Source of the DNA: an uncultured Candidatus Saccharibacteria bacterium
GTDB taxonomy: Bacteria; Patescibacteriota; Minisyncoccia; Phycocordibacterales; UBA3531
Length of the DNA stretch: 64,000 nucleotides
Direction of reading: 5' to 3'
NCBI GenBank assembly: GCA_964361405.1
Contig: CAYIAA010000001.1
Span: 20,917 to 84,916, forward strand
Below are positions 10,181 through 34,641 of this stretch, piece by piece (positions within the stretch are counted from its first letter, which is position 1; every line of letters begins with the position of its first letter). The notes under the pieces were generated by a model that was not told the origin of the DNA, did no database searches, and saw nothing but the letters and a program-made list of their open reading frames with translations. The position numbers and the translations under genes were made by a program.

Positions 10181-11395
10181 ATGTATACAAAAAAAGACAA
10201 CCATGGAAAGGAAAGTAAGGGGTTGGGACTTGCCCGACTTGCGGATGATATTCCGGCCTTTTATGTGCTTGCGATTGATAAAATTGCAAATGAATATCAA
10301 CAAGCCGGGAAAGACGTTATCAAACTCAATCTTGGAAAGTCGGAGGTTCCGATGCCTAAATATGTTGCGGACGAGATGGTGCGGAATATCTACGACGGTA
10401 TCCGACGGGAAATGATCGATCCACAAGGACTCATTCCACTCCGCGAAGAAATTGCACATGCGCACGAGGCGGCTTCCGGAGTACAGGTCTCGCCGGACAA
10501 CGTCTTTATCAATAACGGGACGAGTCCGTTTTTCCTCTCATTTTTTCTCCTTCTTGCAGATCCTGGAGACGAGATTCTTCTTCCTCTCCCGTACTACCCG
10601 ACCTATGTGGCGAGTGCAAATATGGCGCGTCTCGGAAAAAGTTTCTACCGGATTGAAAACGGGCGGGTGAACATGGATGATATTCGCTCACGTTTTGTTC
10701 CCGGAAAAACGAAGATTGTATTTCTCAATTCCCCTGGGAATCCGTTGGGAAACGTACACACGAAGGAGGAACTCCGGGAAATTCTCGACATTGTTGACGG
10801 TCGTGCCTATGTTATTTCCGACGAGATTTACGACGGTTTCGTGTACGGAGACGACTATACCTCCATCTTGAGTGTATACAATCCCGCGCGGGACAAAGTC
10901 ATCGTCGTGAACGGTTTCTCGAAAATCCATCACATGTATACGAGGCGGCTTGGATACGCAATTGTACCAGAAGAATTGACACCGGCACTGCTTAGGTACC
11001 AACAGCATACGCTTGTCTGCGTCGACCCGATTACCCAGTTTGCGGGACTTGTTTCTATGAAGAACAAAGAACGCCTTATCCGTGACGAGACCAAGACAGA
11101 AGTTGAAGAGTATCGCCGCCGACTTCATGCGTCGGAGCGCATTCTCCGGAGCACGCACGCTCGGGTTATACCCCCCGCAGGCAGTTTCTACATGTGTTTG
11201 GATGTCTCGGGTTACCTTGGCGGTAAAACCTCCGATTCGCTCTCACTCGCTAAACTTCTTTTAAACGACGCACATGTTGCAATTACTCCCGCGGAAGATT
11301 TCGGTGGGAGCGATTTTTTCAGAGTGAGTCTTACGAGCAGTCGTGTGGTCGAAGGGATTGAACGGATAGCGGATTTTTTCGCACACTTTAAATGA
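10181..11395 (+). CDS. PLP-dependent aminotransferase, class I/II fold
   Basis: First ATG after an alternative TTG start; NGFSKIHHMYTRRLG carries the class-I aminotransferase Lys (SxSK...R) motif; about 404 aa. Confidence 0.7.
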   Translation: MYTKKDNHGKESKGLGLARLADDIPAFYVLAIDKIANEYQQAGKDVIKLNLGKSEVPMPKYVADEMVRNIYDGIRREMIDPQGLIPLREEIAHAHEAASGVQVSPDNVFINNGTSPFFLSFFLLLADPGDEILLPLPYYPTYVASANMARLGKSFYRIENGRVNMDDIRSRFVPGKTKIVFLNSPGNPLGNVHTKEELREILDIVDGRAYVISDEIYDGFVYGDDYTSILSVYNPARDKVIVVNGFSKIHHMYTRRLGYAIVPEELTPALLRYQQHTLVCVDPITQFAGLVSMKNKERLIRDETKTEVEEYRRRLHASERILRSTHARVIPPAGSFYMCLDVSGYLGGKTSDSLSLAKLLLNDAHVAITPAEDFGGSDFFRVSLTSSRVVEGIERIADFFAHFK

Positions 11396-13476
11396 AAGTT
11401 ATTCTCTGCGCAGCTGGAGTGGGGAGCCGGATGGGACCACTTACCCTTGATCGTTCAAAAGGACTTCTTCCACTGGGTGACAAGCTTTTGATCGAGCATA
11501 TACTTGACGCGGTTTCCGTTTGCGGCATCCGAGACGTTGTCATTGTTGTGGGGCACTTCGCACAGAAGGTTCGAGAGGCAGTGGGAGAAAGTTATGGCGG
11601 TTGCCGCATCACCTACGTTGAGAACCAAGAGTATGCCACGACACAAAATATTTACTCACTCTGGCTCGCGCGGAATCACGTGACTGACGGCATGGTATTT
11701 ATAAACGCCGATACCGTTTTTCACCCCACAATTTTGAAGATGCTCATTGATAGTCCACACGAGAATGCTTTTGCAATGAGTACCCCGATTAAGATTTTTG
11801 AGGATTCAATGAAGGTGTACCTTGAGGAGGATAAGCTTTTCGCAATTGGGAAAGAAATTGCCTACGAACCGCACGGGGAGGCTTTTGGCATCTATAAACT
11901 TTCACAGGAGGGAAGCAAAAAATACTTTTCCATTGCAGAAAATCTTTTTAAGTCGGACAAATACCATAAAACCGTTCCTTTTGTTGTGCCGCTTCAGATA
12001 ATGGCTAGTACGACGCCGATTAAAGCGGTTTCGTCCGGCGAATATCCATGGGCTGAAGTTGATACACCGGAAGATTATGAACGGGCACAGAAAATTATCG
12101 GGCTTATTAGCACTCCTTCGTCTACAAGCGGGCTCGTGAAGAATTACACTGTGGTGGCAACATCTCCCGAAAAGCGCTCACTTCTCAAGTGGTTCGAGAC
12201 AGGAATGCAAAGCATTTTACCGGAATTTCTCATACCAGCTACAGTTCGTGTCTCTCGAGACACCTTATTTGTTCAAGATAAATCATTTCCTTTAGCCAAT
12301 CGACGTGTATTTGTGATTGGAATCGGGAAAGCCGTCCTTGGAATGGCGAAGGCGATTGAAGACGTGCTTGGACTCGAACGGATTACAGCGGGTGTAGTTG
12401 TTTCAAACAGGGATACTGGGCAACTCCGTACTATCGAGGTGCATGAGGCGGATCATCCAGTGCCGTCGGAGCGTAGTGTTTTTGGGGCCAGGAAAGTACT
12501 CGACTTGAAAGCCAAACACAATCTGACTGAGCGGGATCTCTTAATTGCACTTATCTCCGGCGGCGGTTCATCGCTCTTGGCACACCCAGCGTCGGGCATC
12601 ACGCTTTCCGACAAACAGAAAATGATTGAACTCTTAATTCGGAGTGGCGCCACCGTGCACGAGATGACGGTTTTGAAGAAAAAGGTCTCAAGCGTGAAAG
12701 GAGGGAAGCTCGCGCGGCATTTTTATCCGACCCCCATTGTTTCTCTCACGCTCTCTGACGTCGTCGGGAATGATCTTACCGTAATCGCCTCGGGGCCGTT
12801 CGTCCATGACGAGACAACTATCGATGACGCATTCCGTATTATCGATACCTACAACCTCCGCTCCGTATTGCCGAAGAGTATTATGCAGTTTTTTGAAAGT
12901 CGTATCGGAAAAGAAGAAAAAGTTCCTTCATTTGACCACGTTCACCACACGCTTCTTGGGGATAATGATACGGTGCTCTATGCAATTAAAACGGCGGCAG
13001 AGAGTGATGGGGTTCGTGTGCATGTGAAATCCCGCCTTGAAGGCGAAGCAAGCGAAGTCGCACGCACTATCTGTGCCGATATTTCGAAACGGAAAATACA
13101 GGAACCGACGCTTTTTCTCTATGGCGGAGAGACGACGGTGAAACTTCCAGAGGCGCATGGTGTGGGCGGCAGGAATCAGGAATTCGTGTTATCGTGCCTT
13201 GAGTACTTCCGTGCTAATCCGCTCACCGCGCCCTGGGCGCTTCTGTCTCTCGGGACTGACGGAGTTGATTTTATTCCCGAAGCGGCTGGAGCCCTTGTTG
13301 ACCCCGAAACGATTAGAGACGCGGATAAGAAGGGTATTGACTTCGCTCACGCGCTTGCCACGCATGATTCGTATCCGGTGCTCCGCGATCTCGGAACGAT
13401 TGTTTCAACCGGCGGTCCGACAGGAACCAACGTTGGTGATGTAATTATGGTTTTTATTGACCCCAGGCATTCATGA
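11392..13476 (+). CDS. bifunctional fusion: LicC-like nucleotidyl(cytidylyl)transferase plus MOFRL/DUF4147 glycerate 2-kinase-like domain
   Basis: 694 aa. N-terminal MKVILCAAGVGSRMGPLT...KGLLP...NIYSL fits the NTP_transferase (LicC/MobA-like) fold. C-terminal IGIGKAVLGMA, ISGGGSSLL, VKGGKLAR, LSDVVGND, YGGETTV, GVGGRNQE and LGTDGVDF match glycerate-2-kinase (GckA/MOFRL) blocks. Confidence 0.65.
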   Translation: MKVILCAAGVGSRMGPLTLDRSKGLLPLGDKLLIEHILDAVSVCGIRDVVIVVGHFAQKVREAVGESYGGCRITYVENQEYATTQNIYSLWLARNHVTDGMVFINADTVFHPTILKMLIDSPHENAFAMSTPIKIFEDSMKVYLEEDKLFAIGKEIAYEPHGEAFGIYKLSQEGSKKYFSIAENLFKSDKYHKTVPFVVPLQIMASTTPIKAVSSGEYPWAEVDTPEDYERAQKIIGLISTPSSTSGLVKNYTVVATSPEKRSLLKWFETGMQSILPEFLIPATVRVSRDTLFVQDKSFPLANRRVFVIGIGKAVLGMAKAIEDVLGLERITAGVVVSNRDTGQLRTIEVHEADHPVPSERSVFGARKVLDLKAKHNLTERDLLIALISGGGSSLLAHPASGITLSDKQKMIELLIRSGATVHEMTVLKKKVSSVKGGKLARHFYPTPIVSLTLSDVVGNDLTVIASGPFVHDETTIDDAFRIIDTYNLRSVLPKSIMQFFESRIGKEEKVPSFDHVHHTLLGDNDTVLYAIKTAAESDGVRVHVKSRLEGEASEVARTICADISKRKIQEPTLFLYGGETTVKLPEAHGVGGRNQEFVLSCLEYFRANPLTAPWALLSLGTDGVDFIPEAAGALVDPETIRDADKKGIDFAHALATHDSYPVLRDLGTIVSTGGPTGTNVGDVIMVFIDPRHS

Positions 13477-23117: not shown

Positions 23118-24266
23118 ATGCGCAAGATTTGTTTCGTCATTACATCCCATATCCACTATGCCCGGAGCAAGCTTATTTTGGAAGAACTCAAGCGTGACCT
23201 AGGAACAGAGCTTTTGATCGTTGTTGGAGCATCGGCGATTCTCGACCCGCATGGCGATGTTTTGTCACTCCTCGAGCGCGATGGGTTTCCCCACCACGCA
23301 AAAATTCACATGATGCTCGAAGGGGGAAATCCGATTGCGATGGCAAAAACGACCGGTATCGGTATTATGGAATTCGCGACCGCATTCGATAATCTCCGTC
23401 CTGACGTCGTCGTCGTCCGCGGTGACCGCTATGAAGTGCTTGCCGCCGTAATCGCCGCGGCCTATCTCCATATTCCCATCGCGCATATCGAAGGGGGAGA
23501 TGTGACGGGCACGATTGACGAGAGCGTGCGCCACGCGATTACGAAGCTCGCGCACATTCACTTCACTACCAATGAGGCGGCACGGAAGCGAGTTCTTGCC
23601 ATGGGGGAGCATCCGAAGTACGTGTTTAATTTCGGCGCGCCCGAACTTGAGTTTGTCGCTAAAAATACCTTTCAGATTGACAACGACTTTATCAACCGTC
23701 TCGGCGTCGGTGATGCAATAGACATTGACGAGCCGTTTCTCGTAGTAATGCAACATCCGGTGACGAGCGAGATGGGAAAAAATCGCGCACACATCGAAGA
23801 AACGCTTCACGCAGTGCACGACCTCAAAATTCCGACCATTTGGTTTTGGCCGAATGTCGATGCAGGCTCCGACGAGATATCAAAAGGTATCCGGTCATTT
23901 CGAGAAAAGTATAAACCAGAACATATGCGTTTTATTAAATACCTCCCGCCGGAGGAATTCATTGCGCTTTTGAAAAAAACACACTGCCTGGTGGGAAATT
24001 CTTCGGCGGGGATTAAAGAGAGTTCTTATCTTGGTATTCCGGTCGTCAATATCGGTACGCGGCAGAATAATCGCCTGCGGGGTAACAATGTTTTGGATGT
24101 CCCACACAATCGGAATAAGATAAAGAAAGCAATTCAAAAACAACTTGCCCACGGACTCTATAAAAAAGACATGCTCTACTGCCAAAAAGACACCTCTAAA
24201 AATATTGTACGGACGCTCAAAAAAGTCACGCTCTATACCCAAAAAGTTTTTCATGATCGGAAGTAA
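23118..24266 (+). CDS. UDP-N-acetylglucosamine 2-epimerase (hydrolysing), NeuC/LegG-like
   Basis: 382 aa; AHIEGGDVTGTIDESVRHAITKLAHIHFTTNE closely parallels the NeuC [31 protein letters not shown] block. Confidence 0.75.
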   Translation: MRKICFVITSHIHYARSKLILEELKRDLGTELLIVVGASAILDPHGDVLSLLERDGFPHHAKIHMMLEGGNPIAMAKTTGIGIMEFATAFDNLRPDVVVVRGDRYEVLAAVIAAAYLHIPIAHIEGGDVTGTIDESVRHAITKLAHIHFTTNEAARKRVLAMGEHPKYVFNFGAPELEFVAKNTFQIDNDFINRLGVGDAIDIDEPFLVVMQHPVTSEMGKNRAHIEETLHAVHDLKIPTIWFWPNVDAGSDEISKGIRSFREKYKPEHMRFIKYLPPEEFIALLKKTHCLVGNSSAGIKESSYLGIPVVNIGTRQNNRLRGNNVLDVPHNRNKIKKAIQKQLAHGLYKKDMLYCQKDTSKNIVRTLKKVTLYTQKVFHDRK

Positions 24267-24275
24267 TCTAATATC

Positions 24276-24992
24276 GTGGCAAAGCGAATTTCAGTATTAG
24301 GTATTATCACCGCGCGGGGCGGCTCAAAAGGCATTCCGCGGAAAAATATTAAAGACCTCTGCGGAAAGCCGCTTATCGCATATACCATCGAGGCGGCAAA
24401 AGGGAGTAAATTACTTACCCGGTGCGTGCTTTCTACCGACGACACAGAGATCGCCGATATTTCCAAAAAATTCGGATGCGAAGTGCCATTTATGCGTCCT
24501 GTGGAATTTGCACAAGACAGTTCCACTTCCATTGACACAGTTAAACATGCAGTGAATTGGTTTAAGGATAACGAGGCAAAAGAATATGATTATATTATGA
24601 TTCTTCAACCAACGTCTCCCGGTAGAACGAGCGAAGATATTGACGCATCTATTAAAATTGCAGAGAAGACTGGCGCGGATTCGGTAATGAGTATGAAGGA
24701 GCTCGTTGATATGTCGGCGAAGAAGTTAAAAAAAATCGATGAGTCGGGAAAGATTCTTCCGTACTATGAAGATGAGGGAAGAGTGTCTATGATGCGGCAG
24801 GATCTTGCGAAAGTGTATAAGAGAAACTGTGCGATTTATTTGACGAAAACCGCGTCTATTATGAATGGCGATTTATTCGGCGCGGATTCTCGCGCATACA
24901 TCATGCCCGAAGAGCGATCGGCCGATATCAATAAACCCGCTGATTTTGAGTTAGCGGAGTTTTGGATGAGAAAACTTGGAAAATGCGGTTAA
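24276..24992 (+). CDS. acylneuraminate (nonulosonate) cytidylyltransferase, NeuA/CMP-NulO synthetase family
   Basis: GTG start; ITARGGSKGIPRKNIKDLCGKPLIAYTIEAA matches the CMP-sialate synthetase N-terminal motif. Confidence 0.75.
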   Translation: MAKRISVLGIITARGGSKGIPRKNIKDLCGKPLIAYTIEAAKGSKLLTRCVLSTDDTEIADISKKFGCEVPFMRPVEFAQDSSTSIDTVKHAVNWFKDNEAKEYDYIMILQPTSPGRTSEDIDASIKIAEKTGADSVMSMKELVDMSAKKLKKIDESGKILPYYEDEGRVSMMRQDLAKVYKRNCAIYLTKTASIMNGDLFGADSRAYIMPEERSADINKPADFELAEFWMRKLGKCG

Positions 24993-25960
24993 AAATTTTA
25001 AACACCATCGGATCCGAGTTTGCGGAGAAGGCAAAAGCTATTACAGATGCCCTGGGGGAGAGCGACTACAAATCAGTTTCTCAATCTGACCTTCCAAATG
25101 AGATCGAAAAATACGATATTGCAATTGTGGGTTTCGCGAACAAGTTTGACGCGGAAGTTTTGTCGCGCGCAAAGAATTTGAAAGTGATTGCAACTCCTGC
25201 AACCGGACTTGATCATATTGACCTGGCAGTTGCAAAAGAGAAGGGAATCGAGATTCTCTCGCTTCGCGGCGAGACGGAGTTCCTGAATTCAATCACGGGT
25301 ACTGCCGAGCTTGCGTTCGGTCTCTTGATTGATCTTCTCCGGATGACGCCGTTTTCATTTAACGATGTAAAGGAAGGCCGATGGAATAGGGAAAAGTGGC
25401 GTGGGCACAATCTTTCCGGCATGACACTTGGCGTTGTCGGCGTGGGGCGTTTGGGCAGGTGGATGGTTCGCTACGGCAATGCGTTCGATATGAAAGTTAT
25501 TTTTTCCGATCCGAATGTCGAGAAGGTGGATTGTCAAGGGTTCCCCTTGACAACAAATGGAGCAAAAAAAGTGACTTTTGATGAACTTTTATCCGCAAGT
25601 GATGCCATATCAATTCATGTACACCTGGCACCGGACACGGAAAATCTCTTTCATAAACAAGCGTTTGAGAAGATGAAAAAGACCGCCGTGCTCGTGAATA
25701 CCGCGCGCGGCAAGATCGTGAATGAAAAAGACGTATTAGAAGCTCTCATGGGTGGTACTATCGGGGGCTATGCGACGGACGTTTTCGCCGACGAGCTCGA
25801 TTTCAAAAACAATTCCTTCGCGGATCATCCTCTGGTTGAATATGCCAAGGGACATACGAATTGTATTATTGTCCCGCATATCGGCGGCATGACGTATGAA
25901 TCCCGCGAGGCGACGGACGTGTTTATTTCGGAAAAACTCGCTCGCCATTTAAAAAATTGA
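24983..25960 (+). CDS. D-isomer-specific 2-hydroxyacid dehydrogenase (glycerate/hydroxypyruvate reductase or PGDH-like)
   Basis: NAD-binding GVVGVGRLGRWM loop; catalytic-domain pattern ARGKIVNE...HIGG; start could be 24962 or 24983. Confidence 0.7.
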   Translation: MRLKILNTIGSEFAEKAKAITDALGESDYKSVSQSDLPNEIEKYDIAIVGFANKFDAEVLSRAKNLKVIATPATGLDHIDLAVAKEKGIEILSLRGETEFLNSITGTAELAFGLLIDLLRMTPFSFNDVKEGRWNREKWRGHNLSGMTLGVVGVGRLGRWMVRYGNAFDMKVIFSDPNVEKVDCQGFPLTTNGAKKVTFDELLSASDAISIHVHLAPDTENLFHKQAFEKMKKTAVLVNTARGKIVNEKDVLEALMGGTIGGYATDVFADELDFKNNSFADHPLVEYAKGHTNCIIVPHIGGMTYESREATDVFISEKLARHLKN

Positions 25961-25964
25961 TGCG

Positions 25965-26888
25965 ATGAAGGAAGCACCATACCCCAATTTTCTTGTTATA
26001 GGGATGGAGAGAAGTGGCACGCATTGGGTTGCTGCTCTTCTCAACAATCACCCCGAAATCGCGTGTTTTCCGTCACTTCCGTTTTACACCGAAGCCGGAA
26101 GGAACAATATCGGCGAGGTTCATTTTTTTAATACGCTGGCCGGCCTCGACAGAGTGGTCGGGGAGCGCGATACTCGTTCATTTGAAGATTTTTCGACTAA
26201 ATACAACCAAGTTTTTGCCGACCTGGTGCCGTATAAAGACAAGGTTTCAAAGGAAGAACTCTACGTGATGTTTTGTAAGCGATACAGCGATTACTGTAAC
26301 GAGCAGCGTGGTAACAAAAAAATCGTCGGTGAATCAACGCCCGCGTATGTCTTTCACCTCGATTTTATTGACACCCTGTATCCGGGTATTAAGAAAATAG
26401 CGAGCATACGCGACCCGAAAGATAAGATTGTTTCATGGCATTTCAACATGATCAGAAAAAATCGGAAGCCCGCAGGCGAACCTATCACAGAAGAATTTGC
26501 TCTGGGTTATCTTAGAAAACGTATTATCCCCGAATATGAGTCACTTCTTTTATACAATGGAGATGTGCATGTCCTCACCTATGAGCGGATGCACGAAAAA
26601 ACAAAGGAGGTCGCGCGCGGCATGGTGGAATACCTTGGTATGAAAGTCACCGATGAGCTGCTTGACCATATGGAAGCAGAATCTACTTTTGAACGGCAAA
26701 CGGCTCGTGACAGTGCAGATCATACACCTCGTAAGCCGGGAGAGCAGGATGTTTCAAGCGGCCTTCGGAAGGGGATTGTTGGCGATTGGAGGGGAAATAT
26801 AAATGACGCACTGGTGGCAAAGATAGACAGTGAAGTTGCGGAAATACGGAAAAAAGTGTTTGATAGATACCACGTTCTAGAAGAATAA
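25965..26888 (+). CDS. sulfotransferase family protein
   Basis: 307 aa; 5'-PSB-like PNFLVIGMERSGTHWV and 3'-PB-like RDPKDKIVSWHF motifs. Confidence 0.65.
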   Translation: MKEAPYPNFLVIGMERSGTHWVAALLNNHPEIACFPSLPFYTEAGRNNIGEVHFFNTLAGLDRVVGERDTRSFEDFSTKYNQVFADLVPYKDKVSKEELYVMFCKRYSDYCNEQRGNKKIVGESTPAYVFHLDFIDTLYPGIKKIASIRDPKDKIVSWHFNMIRKNRKPAGEPITEEFALGYLRKRIIPEYESLLLYNGDVHVLTYERMHEKTKEVARGMVEYLGMKVTDELLDHMEAESTFERQTARDSADHTPRKPGEQDVSSGLRKGIVGDWRGNINDALVAKIDSEVAEIRKKVFDRYHVLEE

Positions 26889-26893
26889 TAATT

Positions 26894-27751
26894 ATGAAAA
26901 AAAGTGACACACTTCTGCGGTTCTCGTTTACATGGGAAGGGCTCCGTACCTGTCCACTGTGCTCCCATGAGGTTATGCTGCCCTCGGGCAGTGTCGAATG
27001 GCTCGATATGCGGTTTTGGTATGTTATATGCCCCCGTTGTGGTCTTAAGTACATGAACCCGCGTCCCACTCAAGCCTCATACCAGAAATTTTATAAAGAT
27101 TACTTTTGGCAACAAAAGGTCCATAATATTGGTTTTCGGAAAGAGGGCCAAATGTGGGGCATCAAAAAGTATCAATGGGACAATGAGAAAAAATGGACAA
27201 AAGAGGAAGGGGTGAAGAATAAAATGGAGAAGCTAAAAGCACTTCGAATCGATACCGTTACCAAGGCACTCCTCTCGAAATTAGCCATTAATCGAAAGAG
27301 TCATATTCTTGAAGTGGGTTCTGGGTTTCCGGTGACACTTGATGCAATAAACAAGAAATACGGAGCCTCCGTCTATGCCATTGAACCCTCTTTAGAGGCA
27401 CAGAAATCAATTAAAAAATTCAAAAACGTCACTTTTCTTGGTTCGTACGGGGAGGAACTCAAAGTCTTGCGAAAAGGTAAAACAAAATTCGACGCCGTTA
27501 TTTTTTCGCACTCGCTTGAAAATACATTGGTACCGTTTGAGATCATGGGTTATGCACGAGATGTTTTACGCAAAGGAGGTATTATCTACGTTCAGTGCGC
27601 AAATTTGCAGACTTTTGACCAAATGAACCCATACCATCCCTACATTTTTTCTGAGAGCGCCTTTCGAGTCCTCACGAAAAAACTCAAAATGCGATACGAG
27701 AGAATATCGGATCCTACCGATCGAATGCTCACTTCACTTTTTATAAAATAG
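26894..27751 (+). CDS. SAM-dependent methyltransferase with N-terminal Cys4 zinc-ribbon
   Basis: CPLCSH...CPRCG pairs; LEVGSGFPVT motif I. Confidence 0.55.
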   Translation: MKKSDTLLRFSFTWEGLRTCPLCSHEVMLPSGSVEWLDMRFWYVICPRCGLKYMNPRPTQASYQKFYKDYFWQQKVHNIGFRKEGQMWGIKKYQWDNEKKWTKEEGVKNKMEKLKALRIDTVTKALLSKLAINRKSHILEVGSGFPVTLDAINKKYGASVYAIEPSLEAQKSIKKFKNVTFLGSYGEELKVLRKGKTKFDAVIFSHSLENTLVPFEIMGYARDVLRKGGIIYVQCANLQTFDQMNPYHPYIFSESAFRVLTKKLKMRYERISDPTDRMLTSLFIK

Positions 27752-27764
27752 AAATACCTCGGGA

Positions 27765-29999
27765 ATGGCAAAAATAATCGTTACACTTGGGCCATCGACC
27801 AATACTGAGAGCGACCTCCGGAAAATACAAAGTAAGGGCGTTAGTTTCGTGCGGGTTAATATGTCCCACTCGACAACTCTTGATCTTGAGCGTTTCATTC
27901 AAATGTCAAAGAAGGTAGGTATCCCTTTCATTGTTGATACCGAAGGGTCTCAAGTGAGAACGGGGGATCTAAAAGATCCTGAAGTTTCTTACGATGAAAA
28001 TGATGAAATTAAGATATATAACCGTCCGATCATCGGTGACCGAGAAATGATCTGTCTCAAGCCATACCACGTGGTAGAGCAACTTGAACCCGGAGATATT
28101 ATTCACGTTGATTTTAATAATTTAATACTGCGGATAACCGATATATACACACTATCCAAAGGTTACTCTATGGCGAGAGTGATAAGTAGTGGGGTTTTAG
28201 GAAGAAATAAAGCAGTTGTTATTGACTTCGGTGCAAAAAGAGAACTTAACCTTTCTCCATTGTCAGAAAAAGATCACGAGTCCATCGCGATCGGTCTCAG
28301 AGAAGGGGTCGGCCATATTGCTGCTTCATTTATGAGGTCAAAGGCATTTGTAGAAGAGGTGCGACGAGCTACAAAAGGTTCAATGAAAATTATTTCTAAG
28401 ATCGAATGCCTCGACGCTCTCGAGAACCTCGATGAAATAATTGAGGCATCAGATTATTTGTTGATTGACCGGGGGGATTTAAGTAAGGAAGTACCTATAG
28501 AAAAAATACCATTTCTTCAGAAAATCATTTTAAAAAAAGCAAAGGATCAAGGAAAAGGTGTATTTGTTGCAACAAACCTTTTGGAGACCATGGTTCGAGA
28601 GAGGAAACCCACACGTGCAGAGGTAAATGACGTTGCAAATACCATCCTCGATGGCGCATATGGTCTTGCACTCGCGGCCGAGACCGCCATCGGCAAATAC
28701 CCAATGGAGAGTATTGCTATGCTCAATAAATTGATTTCTGAGACAGAGGTATTCCTCAATACCAAGAAAAAAACCACAGGAGAGTCTAAAGAGATGGAGT
28801 ATTTGGAATACCTGTCGTCTGCCGCCATTTCTTCAGCTCTTATACCGCCGCACGGGGGAGTACTCGTTGACCGAGTTTTGAAAGAAATTCCTCCAAAGTC
28901 ATATCTCGATTCACTACGGAAGATCACGATTGACGAAAATCAACAAATGGACGTCGAGCAGATCGGCATTGGAACATTTAGTCCGATTGAAGGATTTATG
29001 GACAAAGATAACTTCAGAAGTGTTTTAGATCGGATGCGGCTGTCCAGCGGTGTTATTTGGACTATACCAATTCTTTTGGATATATCTCTTCCGGAAGCGG
29101 GGGCCATATCAATTGGTGACACCGTTATATTAGTGAATGAAAAAGGCGAAACCCTCTCACTGCTACATGTAAGCGATAAATATACATTCGATAAAGAAGA
29201 AATGGCACAGAAACTGTATGGAACTCGTAGTCCCGAACACCCAGGAGTACAAATGATATCCAAAATGAAACCAATATTACTCGGCGGAAAGATAGATTTA
29301 GTGAAGCGGCGAGGGTCGGACCATAAAGAATATGAATTAACACCTCGTCAGGTACGAAAGTTATTTGATGAGCGTGGCTGGAGAAAAGTAGTGGGATTCC
29401 ACACAAGAAATGTGATCCATCGAAGCCATGAATTTATTCAACTGAAGGCAATGGAGGGGGAATATGCCGATGGATTATTCATACATCCAATTATTGGTAA
29501 GAAAAAAAAGGGAGATTTTAAGGCACTGTATATCCTTAAAGCGTATGAGATGATGATGAAAGATTATTATCCCAAGAACAGCGTTGTCTTAAGCGCTTTT
29601 TCAACGTACTCGCGGTACGCAGGACCAAGGGAAGCAATTTTTACGGCACTTTGCAGAAAAAATTTCGGCTGTAGTCATTTTATTGTTGGACGAGATCACA
29701 CTGGGGTGGGTGATTTTTATCATCCAAATGCTTCTCATGATATTTTTGACCAATTTCCAGATTTGGGTATACAGCCAGTTAAATTTGATAAAGTATTTTA
29801 TTCAAACAGCCATAAAAAGCATCTCCACGAAAGAGATGTTCCTAGTCATCCAGAGAGCGATAAATTTCATATCAGTAGCACTGACGCGAGAAAAATGTTT
29901 GAAAAGGGAGAAAGTCCGCCTGAGTGGTCTATGAGACCGGAAATATCGAAAATGATTATCGATTCTTTATGTGCGGGGCATAAGGTATTTGTCGAATAG
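27765..29999 (+). CDS. fusion protein: pyruvate-kinase-like catalytic barrel (N-terminal) plus sulfate adenylyltransferase/ATP sulfurylase (C-terminal)
   Basis: 744 aa. Pyruvate-kinase blocks VRVNMSHS, VDTEGSQVRTG, IISKIEC, DRGDLS, VATNLLETM and DVANTILDGAYGLALAAETAIGKYP are present with all catalytic residues; no PK C-terminal domain. Sat blocks GFHTRNVIHRSHEFI (QTRNxxHRAHE) and IVGRDHTGVG (GRDHAG) follow. Confidence 0.75.
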   Translation: MAKIIVTLGPSTNTESDLRKIQSKGVSFVRVNMSHSTTLDLERFIQMSKKVGIPFIVDTEGSQVRTGDLKDPEVSYDENDEIKIYNRPIIGDREMICLKPYHVVEQLEPGDIIHVDFNNLILRITDIYTLSKGYSMARVISSGVLGRNKAVVIDFGAKRELNLSPLSEKDHESIAIGLREGVGHIAASFMRSKAFVEEVRRATKGSMKIISKIECLDALENLDEIIEASDYLLIDRGDLSKEVPIEKIPFLQKIILKKAKDQGKGVFVATNLLETMVRERKPTRAEVNDVANTILDGAYGLALAAETAIGKYPMESIAMLNKLISETEVFLNTKKKTTGESKEMEYLEYLSSAAISSALIPPHGGVLVDRVLKEIPPKSYLDSLRKITIDENQQMDVEQIGIGTFSPIEGFMDKDNFRSVLDRMRLSSGVIWTIPILLDISLPEAGAISIGDTVILVNEKGETLSLLHVSDKYTFDKEEMAQKLYGTRSPEHPGVQMISKMKPILLGGKIDLVKRRGSDHKEYELTPRQVRKLFDERGWRKVVGFHTRNVIHRSHEFIQLKAMEGEYADGLFIHPIIGKKKKGDFKALYILKAYEMMMKDYYPKNSVVLSAFSTYSRYAGPREAIFTALCRKNFGCSHFIVGRDHTGVGDFYHPNASHDIFDQFPDLGIQPVKFDKVFYSNSHKKHLHERDVPSHPESDKFHISSTDARKMFEKGESPPEWSMRPEISKMIIDSLCAGHKVFVE

Positions 30000-30013
30000 T
30001 CTCTGGCAACCTC

Positions 30014-30955
30014 ATGGAACTCCTTATTGTTACCTACCACTACGTTGACGACCCGAAGAAATTTAAGGCCGGGATTTATCCCATTTCTCCCGAAGCTTTT
30101 CAGGACCAGATGGAGGGACTTTCTCGAACTCACCAGTTCATTTCCGAGGGGGACTTGCTTGACGCAATTTCTGGAGTGCGACCATTTGCTAAGCCATCAT
30201 GCCTAGTGACTTTCGACGACGGTCTCGCTTCCCAAATGCACTTTGCGGTGCCTATTTTGGAGAAGCAAAAAATCCCTGCAGTTTTTTTTGTTACCACCCA
30301 ACCGTATACAAGCGGTAAGGCCGCTACGGTTCACAAGATCCACTACCTTCTCTCGCAGGTGCCAGCTGAAACCCTCAAAACTGAAGCTGAAGATAGTTAT
30401 AAAAAATTGACCGGTGAAATACTTAATTGGTTGGCAGAGCGCTTGAGAGAGGCGGAGGAGTGGTACATTTACGACGATTTAGTCACTGCTCGTCTCAAGT
30501 TCCTTTTGAACCATTATCTCGACTCCGAGAAGACGGATCATATAGTGGATGACCTTTTTGCTCGCCACTATAGAGATGGAGAAGCGGCATTTGCGAAAGA
30601 ACTCTATTTTTCCCAAAATGATCTCAAGATGATTAAAGACAATCCACTTTTTGCCGTCGGACTTCATACGCACACTCACCTCAACATACAGAAGGCATTA
30701 GAGTCTGCGGTTAAATCGGACATAACTGCAAACTATTCTTATCTCTCTGAACATTTGGGTATGACAATACGCGGCATTTCATACCCTTACGGCATGATTT
30801 CTGAGACTGAATACGAGAAAAAAGTGGTGACTATCGGAAAAGAATTGGGTCTTCTCTATGGCGTCACAACAGTAAAGGGCGTGAATACTGACCTTACAAG
30901 ACCGTTTTTCCTAAAGCGTTTGAATCCGAACGACCTGAAAGAAGAACTCGAGTGA
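30014..30955 (+). CDS. polysaccharide deacetylase (NodB homology, CE4)
   Basis: 313 aa; LVTFDDG motif and the His-rich HTHTH region. Confidence 0.7.
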   Translation: MELLIVTYHYVDDPKKFKAGIYPISPEAFQDQMEGLSRTHQFISEGDLLDAISGVRPFAKPSCLVTFDDGLASQMHFAVPILEKQKIPAVFFVTTQPYTSGKAATVHKIHYLLSQVPAETLKTEAEDSYKKLTGEILNWLAERLREAEEWYIYDDLVTARLKFLLNHYLDSEKTDHIVDDLFARHYRDGEAAFAKELYFSQNDLKMIKDNPLFAVGLHTHTHLNIQKALESAVKSDITANYSYLSEHLGMTIRGISYPYGMISETEYEKKVVTIGKELGLLYGVTTVKGVNTDLTRPFFLKRLNPNDLKEELE

Positions 30956-30973
30956 GATAAGGACGATGCTGTT

Positions 30974-31591
30974 TTAAAGTTTGCCAGAGAGTTTTTGCAA
31001 AAGTGTACTCTCGTCCGCTTGGGAAGAAACAACGAAGGTGCGATCCGCAAGTTGGGAAAAGAGCGGCAAGAATATTTTCTCATTTATTTCCATTGCCACT
31101 CCCCATGACGCTCTCTCCCTGCCGCTCGCGATTCCTTCTCGAGCACCATAACCACGCTCATCTGCGCGTTTTCCGCGGACCTCTTTCGGCGTGGCGAGGA
31201 GAATAAGCATTTCGACGCGGGGGATGAATTCTAGATAGCGTTCAAATATACGGGGTGGAACTGGTCGCTCAAAAATCGAGTAGAAGTTTTGGACATGGCC
31301 TTCGTCGATGATGGCGTTTTTGAGTTTTCTAGCCTTTTCATATTTGGCGGCATGGTGGAGAAAAGTATTCAAGACTTTTGTTCGGAACACCGGCCAGCTT
31401 CGCGACTCGGTCACAATGAGGGAAAGTGTTTTGATTGTGAAGAGCGGGTGTTTTGAGGCAAAGAGGGAAGCGAGAGTAAGAAGCTCACTTTTTCCGGTAA
31501 TCTTCACAATCGGGAAATCCAGACGCTCGGAGAGTATTTTTGCAAGAGATGTTTTCCCTGAAGCGGGAGGGCCGACGAGTTCTATAATCAC
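30974..31591 (-). CDS. P-loop NTPase/kinase-like hypothetical protein (not a recognisable APS kinase)
   Basis: 205 aa; Walker A GPPASGKTSLAK at the N-terminus; lacks the CysC DGDN/FISP motifs. Confidence 0.4.
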   Translation of the reverse strand: MIIELVGPPASGKTSLAKILSERLDFPIVKITGKSELLTLASLFASKHPLFTIKTLSLIVTESRSWPVFRTKVLNTFLHHAAKYEKARKLKNAIIDEGHVQNFYSIFERPVPPRIFERYLEFIPRVEMLILLATPKEVRGKRADERGYGAREGIASGRERASWGVAMEINEKIFLPLFSQLADRTFVVSSQADESTLLQKLSGKL

Positions 31592-32316
31592 GGCTTTGTG
31601 AATGTTACAGCGTAAGATTCTGAAAAAAAAGCACTCGCGGGATTGAGTTGGAAGGACGAAAATATCCGGTAAAGTAATCTATTGAGAGCCGGAATTGAGA
31701 TAACTGGGGTATGAAGAGTAACTGGCCACACCCCCTCTACAGAGAATCCCGCATCTCTTAGAAACCTAGTGAGCACTTTCGGTTTGATTTGACCTCGGTG
31801 GATGGGTGGAATAGTTTTTCTCGCGAGGGTACTCCGTCCATAATGAGACATCTTGGTGATGATGATACCCCGACCACCCGCTTTCATGAGTGAGAACACC
31901 TTCTTCGCGAAATCTTTTTTAGACGGAAGGTACTCGATTGCCCGGGATGAAAAGAAGAAATCGTATCTTTTGTTTGCCGCAAAAGACATAAAGTCCGAAT
32001 GAATATAGTGGATATTTTCGGCATTTCCCAATCCGGTTTTTGCCTGCCTCAACATGACCTCGGAGATGTCGACAAGATCAAATGAAGCGTTTGGAACGAA
32101 CGTGATGAACACTTTTGTCCATGTCCCCGGGCCGGAGCCTAGTTCGAGATAGTGCGAGAACTTTACATCCTTGGCGAGCTGCCGTATAGATTTCTCCGTC
32201 ATAAAATAATCTTGTTCGCGTTCGGCGGTGCTTTTCCACCGCGCCCTTTCATATTCGCCTCCAGCATTTTCCGCGAAGCGGTTGAAGGATTGTTCTATAT
32301 CAGTTTGTTGGAACAT
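31588..32316 (-). CDS. class I SAM-dependent methyltransferase
   Basis: 242 aa; LELGSGPGTWT motif I; MKAGGRGII; start/stop overlap with the downstream P-loop gene. Confidence 0.6.
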   Translation of the reverse strand: MFQQTDIEQSFNRFAENAGGEYERARWKSTAEREQDYFMTEKSIRQLAKDVKFSHYLELGSGPGTWTKVFITFVPNASFDLVDISEVMLRQAKTGLGNAENIHYIHSDFMSFAANKRYDFFFSSRAIEYLPSKKDFAKKVFSLMKAGGRGIIITKMSHYGRSTLARKTIPPIHRGQIKPKVLTRFLRDAGFSVEGVWPVTLHTPVISIPALNRLLYRIFSSFQLNPASAFFSESYAVTFTKP

Positions 32317-32370: not shown

Positions 32371-34641
32371 ATGCGTCCGGAACGGATACTTACGAACGTT
32401 CTCACTGGCGGAATTTTTTTGATTCCCTTTGTTCCGCTCCTTATTGCGAGTACTGATGCTTTTCCATACCTGATTGGGAATCTCTTTTTCCCCTACATCA
32501 CCGGAAAGAATATCGTTTTCCGGGTTCTCGTTGAAATACTCACGGCCGGCTGGCTTATTCTCGTCATCCTTGATAAGCGTTATCTACCAAAAAAGTCACT
32601 CATCGTCTATGCGGTGTCGGCTTTCCTTGTGGTTATGTCACTCGCCACAGCGCTTGGTGTGGATCCTTATCGGAGTTTCTGGTCGAGTTTTGAAAGGATG
32701 GAAGGACTTGTCACTTACATCCACCTCTACCTTTTCTTTATTCTCCTCGGCTCTTTTCTCCAGAGCGAAAAGCTTTGGCGGTGGTTTTTCCACACCTCGA
32801 TCGGGGTTTCCATCGTAATAAGTTTCATCGCTCTTTCACAACTTTTAGGTTATACCCCCATTGTGCAAAGCTCGGAGCGCCTTGAGGCTACATTCGGGAA
32901 CGCTACGTACTTGGCAGTCTACCTTCTCTTCCACATCTTCTTCGCCGCTTATTATCTATTTCAGACAAAGCATCGCGGCAAGTTAACCAAAATTATCTAC
33001 GCTGGAATCATTCTCTTTGAATCCACCATGCTTCTTTTTACCGAAACGAGAGGAGCTATTGTGGGACTCGTGGCGGGTGTTCTCGTTATCGCGGCACTGA
33101 ACGCGTATGCGAACCGCGGACGCGCGCGAAAAATTGCGGTGGGTGTTCTTGTCGGCGCTTTTTTATTGACTGCCCTTTTCGCGACACTCCGTGATACTGA
33201 ACTTGTGCAAAATCAGCGTGTTCTCCGGCGGATGGCAAATATTTCCATCTCCGAAGTTGCCACCTCTCGTTTTACTATCTGGAAAATGGCTTTGAGAGGA
33301 ACGGTAGAGCGGCCTATTCTTGGCTGGGGTCCGGAGAACTTTATGGCCGTATTCTCGAAGTATTACGATCCAAACCTCTATAACCAAGAACCGTGGTTTG
33401 ACCGGGCGCACAATGTATTTCTTGACTGGCTTGTGGGTGGCGGCATAGCGGGCCTCCTAGCCTACCTTTCTCTTTTTGCCGCATCGCTTTATTACCTTAT
33501 CAGTGGACAGCGAGAATCCGCTCCGAATGGAAGTTTCCGGAGGAAAATTTCAGCCCTTCTTTCAAAGTTTCTCGGGGATGAAGATATGATGGGGAGGACA
33601 ATTCTTGTTGGGCTTTTCGTCGCCTATTTCATCCAAAACTTTTTTGTTTTCGATAATATTGGAAGTTATATCCTTTTCTTCTCCGTGCTTGCCTACCTCA
33701 ATTATCATTATGGCGCGGAGTGGAAACTTTTCGATCGTGTGGCAACCGCGTATCAAAAAACAGTTCCCTTACTTGCAGGGATTATAATCATTGTCCCAAT
33801 CGTAGCTTTTGTTTTCTACACAGTGAACGTCAAGGCATTTCTTGCGTCGAGGACGCTTATTGCTGCTATGCAACCGCATGAAGGAAAAGGGGTGCTTTAT
33901 AATCTCGAACTCTTTGAAAAAGTTATTGAGTATGGAACACTCGGGACGCCCGAAGCTCGTGAGCAGTTTCTACAAATTGCGGCGACGATTGCCGGAGTAG
34001 AGGGCATCGGTCCCGAGGTGAAAGAACAATTTATACATACAGCGAAAGCGGAAATGGTAAAACAACTTGAGGAGCGTCCGTACGACAGCCGCTACCCGCT
34101 TTTTCTCGGTTCATTTCTCGCAAGCACGGGGAATGTTGACGAAGCATTAATTTATCTCAATAAAGCTCACGAACTCTCTCCGCGCAAGCAATTGGTATTT
34201 TTTGAGATTGCCTCGATATATGTTCGAAAAGGGAATTACCAAGAAGCGCTTCGATACGCAAAAGAGGCATATGATCTCGCACCAACTTTTCCCGAGGCGC
34301 AGAAATTTTATGCCCTCCTCGCAATTTATACCGGGAATATTTCACTTGCGGATGAAATTATTACGGATCGAAAGCTTTATACCGACCAGCGGTTTATAAA
34401 CGCTTTTCTTTCGCAAGGGAAAGCAGGCCGCGTAGTCGAAGTATGGAAAAGTGTTGTCGCCGAAAATCCGAACAATGCGCAGAATCACATATCGCTTGCT
34501 GCGGCATACCTCGCAAACGGCGAGCGATCGCAAGCCGTGAAAGAACTTGAAGCGGCAATTCTCCTTGAGAGTGCATTTCGAGAACAGGGTGAGTATTTGA
34601 TTGGTGAAATTAAAGCCGGCAGAAATCCTTCGTCTCCATAG
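32371..34641 (+). CDS. O-antigen ligase/polymerase (Wzy_C-like) multi-pass membrane protein with C-terminal TPR repeats
   Basis: 756 aa; more than 10 TM helices; FTETRGAIVGLVAG loop typical of Wzy_C; C-terminal TPR-like repeats (NYQEALRYAKEAYDLAP...). Confidence 0.65.
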   Translation: MRPERILTNVLTGGIFLIPFVPLLIASTDAFPYLIGNLFFPYITGKNIVFRVLVEILTAGWLILVILDKRYLPKKSLIVYAVSAFLVVMSLATALGVDPYRSFWSSFERMEGLVTYIHLYLFFILLGSFLQSEKLWRWFFHTSIGVSIVISFIALSQLLGYTPIVQSSERLEATFGNATYLAVYLLFHIFFAAYYLFQTKHRGKLTKIIYAGIILFESTMLLFTETRGAIVGLVAGVLVIAALNAYANRGRARKIAVGVLVGAFLLTALFATLRDTELVQNQRVLRRMANISISEVATSRFTIWKMALRGTVERPILGWGPENFMAVFSKYYDPNLYNQEPWFDRAHNVFLDWLVGGGIAGLLAYLSLFAASLYYLISGQRESAPNGSFRRKISALLSKFLGDEDMMGRTILVGLFVAYFIQNFFVFDNIGSYILFFSVLAYLNYHYGAEWKLFDRVATAYQKTVPLLAGIIIIVPIVAFVFYTVNVKAFLASRTLIAAMQPHEGKGVLYNLELFEKVIEYGTLGTPEAREQFLQIAATIAGVEGIGPEVKEQFIHTAKAEMVKQLEERPYDSRYPLFLGSFLASTGNVDEALIYLNKAHELSPRKQLVFFEIASIYVRKGNYQEALRYAKEAYDLAPTFPEAQKFYALLAIYTGNISLADEIITDRKLYTDQRFINAFLSQGKAGRVVEVWKSVVAENPNNAQNHISLAAAYLANGERSQAVKELEAAILLESAFREQGEYLIGEIKAGRNPSSP

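Follow-up and report, generated by a model that had tools for sequence, protein, structure and literature searches.

A sulfotransferase beside a pyruvate kinase-like ATP sulfurylase fusion, and no recognisable APS kinase, in the surface-glycan island of a groundwater Saccharibacteria genome

The window analysed here is a 64,000 nucleotide stretch of the genome of an uncultured Candidatus Saccharibacteria bacterium, a member of the Candidate Phyla Radiation (CPR) from groundwater, with an assembly of 569,703 bp in 9 contigs that is 97.9% complete. At positions 25965 to 32316 the window holds a sulfotransferase (ST) of the type that uses 3'-phosphoadenosine 5'-phosphosulfate (PAPS), together with a fusion of a pyruvate kinase (PK)-like barrel and a Sat-type ATP sulfurylase (PK::Sat). 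An APS kinase (CysC), which would turn adenosine 5'-phosphosulfate (APS) into PAPS, was not found. From the gene content we show that the predicted pathway stops at APS, and that ST is retained in relatives in which no route of sulfate activation was identified. The cell probably obtains its sulfate donor from outside. All six open reading frames (ORFs) were confirmed at their positions and their family assignments hold. The features are as follows.

25965..26888, + strand: sulfotransferase (ST), SULT-like, PAPS type (PF00685, 1e-20; PF13469, 6e-19), with 5'-phosphosulfate-binding (PSB) loop R16-S-G-T-H-W21, 3'-phosphate-binding (PB) residues R149/S157 and the R268-K-G loop
26894..27751, + strand: MT1, a CxxC/CxxC class I S-adenosylmethionine (SAM) methyltransferase, usual neighbour of this sulfotransferase family; ratio of non-synonymous to synonymous substitution (dN/dS) 0.05
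27765..29999, + strand: PK barrel::PUA::ATP sulfurylase fusion (PK::Sat); NCBIfam sat model 429 bits, cut-off 387
27765..28769, + strand: PK-like barrel half of PK::Sat, no C domain; pocket residues E60, Q63, D235, N271; GC content at third codon positions (GC3) 0.39
28836..29999, + strand: Sat-type ATP sulfurylase half of PK::Sat; HxxH, RYAGPRE and GRDH intact; dN/dS 0.05-0.075; GC3 0.36
30000..30013, no strand: empty cysC slot, 14 bp between sat and the deacetylase gene; relatives have a fused or adjacent APS kinase here, often followed by cysQ
30014..30955, + strand: polysaccharide deacetylase, NodB type
30974..31591, - strand: 205-aa P-loop kinase with a dTMP/deoxynucleoside kinase fold, not CysC; its GTG start overlaps the MT2 stop
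31588..32316, - strand: MT2, class I SAM methyltransferase; in most of the loci examined its gene immediately precedes the P-loop gene

A reading made from the sequence alone had described this region as a sulfation module without a recognisable APS kinase, and genome-wide searches with Pfam, CysC and lidless APS kinase profiles bear this out. The APS kinase family (Pfam: PF01583) gave a best E-value of 0.017, in Walker A stretches only. A six-frame search of the whole genome, read through stops and using a CysC profile from PK::Sat relatives, found neither a cysC nor a remnant of one, and the lidless APS kinase profile gave no match in the same kind of search. No canonical cysC was found elsewhere in the assembly, nor was the combination of a sulfurylase and an APS kinase that makes up a complete PAPS synthesis cassette. 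CysD and CysQ were searched for in the whole genome and neither was found, and no HxGH mini-sulfurylase was found in six frames, where the weak matches were Walker A stretches of other NTPases.

The island is internal to contig C1, away from the contig ends. The region is spanned by one 50.5-kb contig, possibly of the source sample, and a metagenome scan with ST matched one short contig. Misassembly at the empty slot was ruled out, as the sat/deacetylase junction is bridged by a contig of a second study and is the same in the relative L106 (87-90% identity, synonymous divergence (dS) ~1).

The missing CysC is unusual for the PK::Sat gene family. The fusion is widespread across bacteria and archaea. 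We surveyed 53 homologous loci and tested 50 other genomes for CysC. PK::Sat::CysC single chains occur at 17 of the 53 loci and a separate cysC lies nearby at 18, and a full-length CysC is present in 46 of the 50 genomes; in two of the four exceptions the gene is cut by a contig end. In small CPR and DPANN genomes cysC is, with few exceptions, either fused or adjacent. Intact PK::Sat lacking CysC was also found in the draft genomes G022, whose sister locus has a fused CysC, and G186, both of which also lack a full-length member of the P-loop family. In comparison with known PAPS synthesis by Sat and CysC (Aquifex Sat-APS kinase, PDB 2gks; ATPS/APSK/PAPP of M. thermolithotrophicus, PMC10322725, PDB 8a8d), the window likewise has a Sat-type sulfurylase (E 4e-97 to 8a8d) beside a PAPS-type sulfotransferase, but no APS kinase or CysQ was found in it, an N-terminal PK-like barrel is added and HTRN replaces QTRN. 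At another locus of the family (L103:6853-7356, the same as L046) a 167-aa ORF with no Pfam match, which may be a shadow ORF, lies on the opposite strand between PK::Sat and cysC.

We show by alignment that the predicted ST is built for a 3'-phosphorylated donor and has no sign of a switch to APS, since every 3'-phosphate contact is kept. The contact residues R149, S157, R268 and G270 do not vary among 96 homologs. The PAPS-type motifs are complete, with the 5'-PSB motif RSGTHW at residues 16-21, the 3'-PB motif RxxxDxxxS as R149, D153 and S157, and R268-K-G. The roles of the 3'-phosphate contacts are described for mouse SULT2A8 (PMC8134075), a cytosolic SULT whose PSB motif (K/R)SGTHW including the His, PB Arg and Ser, and R-K loop all map onto the window ST; unlike it, the window ST is bacterial and encoded in a glycan island, and it matches solved SULTs only weakly (best E 1e-8). 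No donor-motif column splits the copies from loci without cysC from those with it. Of 64 conserved ST columns, the former keep 59-63 and the latter 63-64, with a family median of 62. The dN/dS of ST between the window and L106 is 0.07.

In the relatives the genes recur as a block in the order ST, MT1, a variable slot, the deacetylase, the P-loop gene and MT2 on the opposite strand, and a Wzy_C gene. The slot holds PK::Sat in the window and in L106 and a stand-alone PK barrel in three lineages. It holds nothing in L110 or in G051, a genome that is 96% complete, belongs to the same family as the source and yielded neither PK nor Sat nor CysC in the searches. The full form, ST-MT1-PK::Sat-cysC-cysQ, is present in L105 in a slightly different order. 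Whatever the slot contains, ST and MT1 are intact with all PAPS contacts. Every gene compared between the window and L106 has a dN/dS of 0.05-0.09, at dS ~1.

The contents of the slot have likely been swapped, as judged by sequence divergence and base composition. The closest relative of the window by ST (84% identity) and P-loop protein (77%) has a stand-alone PK barrel that is only 48% identical, and pk::sat has the lowest GC3 of the block (0.39 and 0.36, against 0.46-0.54 for the rest). Monophyly of the PK domains found in the slot was not rejected (p-AU 0.62), so the swap is drawn from these identities and GC3. A re-import of pk::sat into the window lineage would fit best, and the direction of the swap is not fixed. 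The stand-alone barrels (L085:5213-6226, L108:4803-5831 and P0024) form one clade with shared new pocket residues, RHD for RGD and SSY, ASY or SSF for ATN, which suggests an altered function, not random decay.

This series of slots, from full through PK::Sat and PK only to empty around an unchanged ST, supports an incomplete donor pathway in a CPR surface-glycan island that is topped up with PAPS of a host, which is our leading, if tentative, explanation. ST would still need a 3'-phosphorylated donor, the cell would be unable to finish its synthesis, and PAPS would be taken from the host or the surroundings to modify a surface glycan containing nonulosonic acid. The sequence-only reading was correct in that the gap is real and the pathway incomplete, and the three explanations it offered, 3'-phosphorylation by the PK-like domain, 3'-phosphorylation by the P-loop protein and direct use of APS, are not supported.

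Several points weigh against the import of PAPS. Sat is under strong purifying selection (dN/dS 0.052 between the window and L106 at dS ~1, like its neighbours), and only one of 63 conserved residues of its catalytic domain is changed. It is not obvious that an organism supplied with imported PAPS would need Sat, and this reading gives no reason for its retention. Furthermore, the low GC3 and the discordance between the PK and ST trees suggest that pk::sat was re-imported, which implies some benefit. No PAPS importer was identified (none was searched for) and no CysQ was found to clear 3'-phosphoadenosine 5'-phosphate (PAP).

The wider pattern was counted in 401 genomes of the order, with PF13469 (Sulfotransfer_3) defining a sulfotransferase and no match at E <= 1e-15 defining the absence of CysC. 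Sulfotransfer_3 was found in 43 genomes, any CysC match in 20 and Sat in 10. CysC is absent from 29 of the 43 sulfotransferase genomes, 28 of which are at least 90% complete and one of which is a single contig and 100% complete; the 29 include no genome with CysD and two with Sat. Many of these orphan sulfotransferases belong to a different, tetratricopeptide repeat (TPR)-linked family, which also counts against our explanation, and the figure therefore supports a general CPR pattern only and not one of the ST family of the window.

If the donor does come from a host, surface modification in many CPR bacteria would draw on activated sulfate that they cannot produce themselves, a specific and testable host dependency that goes beyond nucleotides and lipids. 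In the literature searched we found no paper on such a dependency in CPR, and nothing relevant on the PK::Sat fusion, on CPR sulfotransferases or on APS as a sulfotransferase donor. The natural series of full, cysC-less, PK-only and empty loci around one conserved ST makes the specificity for PAPS or APS, and the real activity of PK::Sat, assayable with four small proteins.

In one alternative, the 205-aa P-loop protein would act as an APS 3'-kinase not homologous to CysC, either as its main function or as a moonlighting one, and would complete PAPS synthesis together with PK::Sat. In its favour, the gene lies beside all seven cysC-less loci of the syntenic block (L106 ends before the gene, and a close homolog is on other contigs), the protein has an intact Walker A and conserved D96, R146 and R151, and a re-import of sat lacking cysC would be sensible if a kinase was already there. 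Distant relatives also occur near PK::Sat in six Chloroflexi and Actinobacteria loci. We nevertheless consider this unlikely, mainly on the grounds of fold and distribution.

Structure prediction, which the sequence-only reading had proposed, gave a model with pLDDT 93.7 and a fold of the dTMP/deoxynucleoside kinase type, an outcome that the same reading had listed as a refutation. The closest folds are thymidylate kinases (TMK) and deoxynucleoside kinases (dNK) with Z 11.2-11.1 (PDB 1g3u, 4dwj, 2jas), root mean square deviation 3.2-3.9 over 158-166 residues, whereas the APS kinases 1x6v (Z 8.7) and 2gks (Z 8.4), which belong to the same superfamily, rank 17 and 29 among many other P-loop kinases. 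The protein has a nucleoside monophosphate (NMP) kinase fold with Walker A and lid arginines, but it differs from the thymidylate and deoxynucleoside kinases in its 15-18% identity and its glycan-locus context, and no dTMP/dNK family hidden Markov model (HMM) exceeded its cut-off (dNK E 0.039; PF02223 no match). Profile searches against PDB sequences gave Walker A matches only, and a search of the ESM Atlas gave only unnamed AAA_18/33 clusters. PF02223 thymidylate kinase has no match in the whole genome, in which adenylate kinase is present. The sequence-only reading had noted that the protein lacks the motifs of CysC, and the consensus of the 44-sequence P-loop family confirms this, with neither the DGD Mg/APS motif after strand 2 nor the conserved lid motifs, and a DEG motif at strand 3. 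Neither PF01583 nor the CysC profile matches the P-loop protein beyond Walker A, and the hhalign alignment covers 21 columns only.

The distribution of the P-loop family argues in the same direction. The family goes with the neighbouring methyltransferase and follows neither sat nor the loss of cysC. In most homologous loci MT2 immediately precedes the P-loop gene, and a glycosyltransferase or deacetylase gene usually comes next. The family coexists with a canonical CysC in G075, is missing from 26 of the 29 cysC-less sulfotransferase genomes, and occurs in four of 160 genomes that lack a PF13469 match, among them the single-contig G097, in which Sat and CysC were not found either. It is not significantly enriched among sulfotransferase genomes (4/43 vs 4/160, p=0.06), and five of the seven cysC-less loci of the block also lack sat.

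MT2 and the P-loop kinase would, by analogy, form a separate glycan-tailoring module, most likely for phosphorylation of a sugar followed by methylation. Methylphosphate terminators made with different kinases are known from WbdD of E. coli O9a (PMC3482155) and ORF6 of K. pneumoniae O7 (PMC11231755), where, as in the window, a methyltransferase is coupled to a kinase in a glycan locus with an ABC exporter. The analogy is functional only, as the window has two separate small proteins, no coiled-coil ruler was seen in them and the kinase has an NMP kinase P-loop fold.

Other P-loop proteins were observed in the surveyed loci. At L165:2-1925 (G075) a member of the window family is the N-terminus of a 641-aa fusion protein. 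A nucleotidyltransferase::TMK-like protein of about 520 aa is encoded at the Chloroflexi and Actinobacteria PK::Sat loci L015, L016, L020, L027, L029, L034, L048 and L055, several of which also hold a distant relative of the window P-loop protein. In G042, which has no CysC, the exact position of cysC after PK::Sat is taken by a 188-aa AAA_33/KTI12-like P-loop protein (L047:12238-12804), a stronger candidate than the window protein for an atypical APS kinase.

Direct use by ST of the APS made by Sat is improbable as well. It would explain the selection on a Sat with no cysC, and an intact PK::Sat beside a sulfotransferase and lacking CysC recurs in G022 and G186. However, the 3'-phosphate contacts of ST are all unchanged, and the same ST persists in relatives with no sat at the locus or with none found in the genome, where the cell has no identified source of APS.

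A third alternative, to which we likewise give little weight, is a chemistry other than sulfation. The PK::Sat(::CysC) family would then make a different adenylated donor of a phospho type for sulfotransferase-fold enzymes and MT1: the PK-like barrel would phosphorylate a small substrate other than pyruvate, the His variant of Sat would adenylylate the product, and the ST fold and MT1 would transfer and methylate the phospho-type group. In the window lineage, with no CysC, the donor would either stay unphosphorylated at 3' or be phosphorylated by the TMK-fold kinase. The O-methyl phosphoramidate route of C. jejuni offers a parallel logic.

The attraction of this idea is that near-invariant substitutions are coupled in both active sites throughout the family, and therefore neither activity can be assumed to be canonical. 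The PK barrel of the fusion is the only PK in the genome and has the metal, K+ and nucleotide ligands. It keeps R30, N32, S34, H35, D58, R65, K149, K212, E214, G237, D238 and T270 of E. coli PykF. Unlike PykF it lacks the C domain and has K-to-E, E-to-Q, A-to-D, Q-to-N and M-to-A changes in the motifs around the substrate site. The canonical VARGD, ATQ and MLSGE motifs of pyruvate kinase are absent, and the equivalog score of 280 bits is below the cut-off of 306. Family-wide, DTEGSQ replaces DT(K/R)GPE, IDRGD replaces VARGD, ATN replaces AT(Q/E) and the Met of VMLSGE is lost. The Sat half scores above its family HMM cut-off and has HxxH, RYAGPRE and GRDH, and the substitutions typical of the family are H546 for Q, S616 for M and T627 for H. 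These give HTRN for QTRN in 52 of 52 sequences, SRYAGP, and FTA for (F/H)HA. QTRN is present in all three solved ATP sulfurylases that were aligned, and the window Sat does not have QxRN. The Gln of this motif contacts sulfate in ATP sulfurylase.

Also in favour of another chemistry, the PK barrel is intact in many fusions with a wrecked Sat active site (P0009, P0016-P0018, P0021 and others), direct PK::CysC fusions with no Sat exist (P0015, P0094), and MT1 usually accompanies this sulfotransferase. On the other side, PK::Sat is partnered by ordinary CysC and CysQ and by sulfotransferases of several unrelated families, and the Q-to-H and H-to-T changes may compensate each other. In addition, the 3'-phosphate contacts of ST and the relatives with an empty slot would stay unexplained. 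At locus L015 a second Sat, fused to CysC, is dead, which apparently leaves PK::Sat as the working enzyme that feeds a normal CysC. An argument that two Sats in one cluster at this locus prove a different chemistry of PK::Sat was rejected, as the second Sat has no catalytic motifs.

As about 2% of the genome is missing from the assembly, the absence of cysC is not absolute. With 9 contigs, and with cysC unlinked from PK::Sat in some genomes such as L007, the gene could lie in this part. This is very unlikely, since C1 holds the island in one piece, small CPR and DPANN genomes rarely have cysC anywhere but fused or adjacent, and none was found in the family relative G051 either. We regard it as similarly doubtful that the module is silent and decaying, held in place by lag only. 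The slot series does resemble a stepwise loss, and the window Sat has a private G705S in the ISGT loop, where however Thermus Sat has ISMT. Against decay, the low dN/dS given above holds for every gene compared, and the motifs are intact in relatives that are only 54-68% identical.

Finally, the proposal that the PK-like barrel itself supplies the 3'-phosphate, which its fusion to Sat and its altered substrate pocket might suggest, is hardly credible: the same barrel with the same residues shares 17 single chains and 18 further loci with CysC, the window barrel departs from the family at only one of 85 conserved positions, and the barrel is therefore no stand-in for CysC.

The block is flanked by further genes of the glycan island.

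23118..25960, + strand: neuC, a neuA-type cytidylyltransferase and a D-2-hydroxyacid dehydrogenase
32371..34641, + strand: Wzy_C/O-antigen-ligase-like TPR protein; conserved, and bounds the syntenic block on the right

The minus-strand MT2 and P-loop pair, which the sequence-only reading called divergent, is divergent from the Wzy_C gene but convergent with the deacetylase gene. The neuB gene is at C1:2214-3359, outside the window, where it adjoins a murD-like gene and is displaced from neuC and neuA, whereas relatives keep neuB-neuC-neuA together. Upstream in the same island, at 11392-13476 of the window, a nucleotidyltransferase-like domain is fused to a glycerate kinase-like domain, as judged by inspection. 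The sole DHH match in the genome is within a 582-aa frame on contig C3. Among other CPR genomes, a fusion of an HxGH nucleotidyltransferase with a shortened APS kinase was observed at L143:569-1336, L144:3985-4737, L145:1970-2779 and L146:4093-4935, and a stand-alone shortened APS kinase lies beside cysDN at L142:5372-5803.

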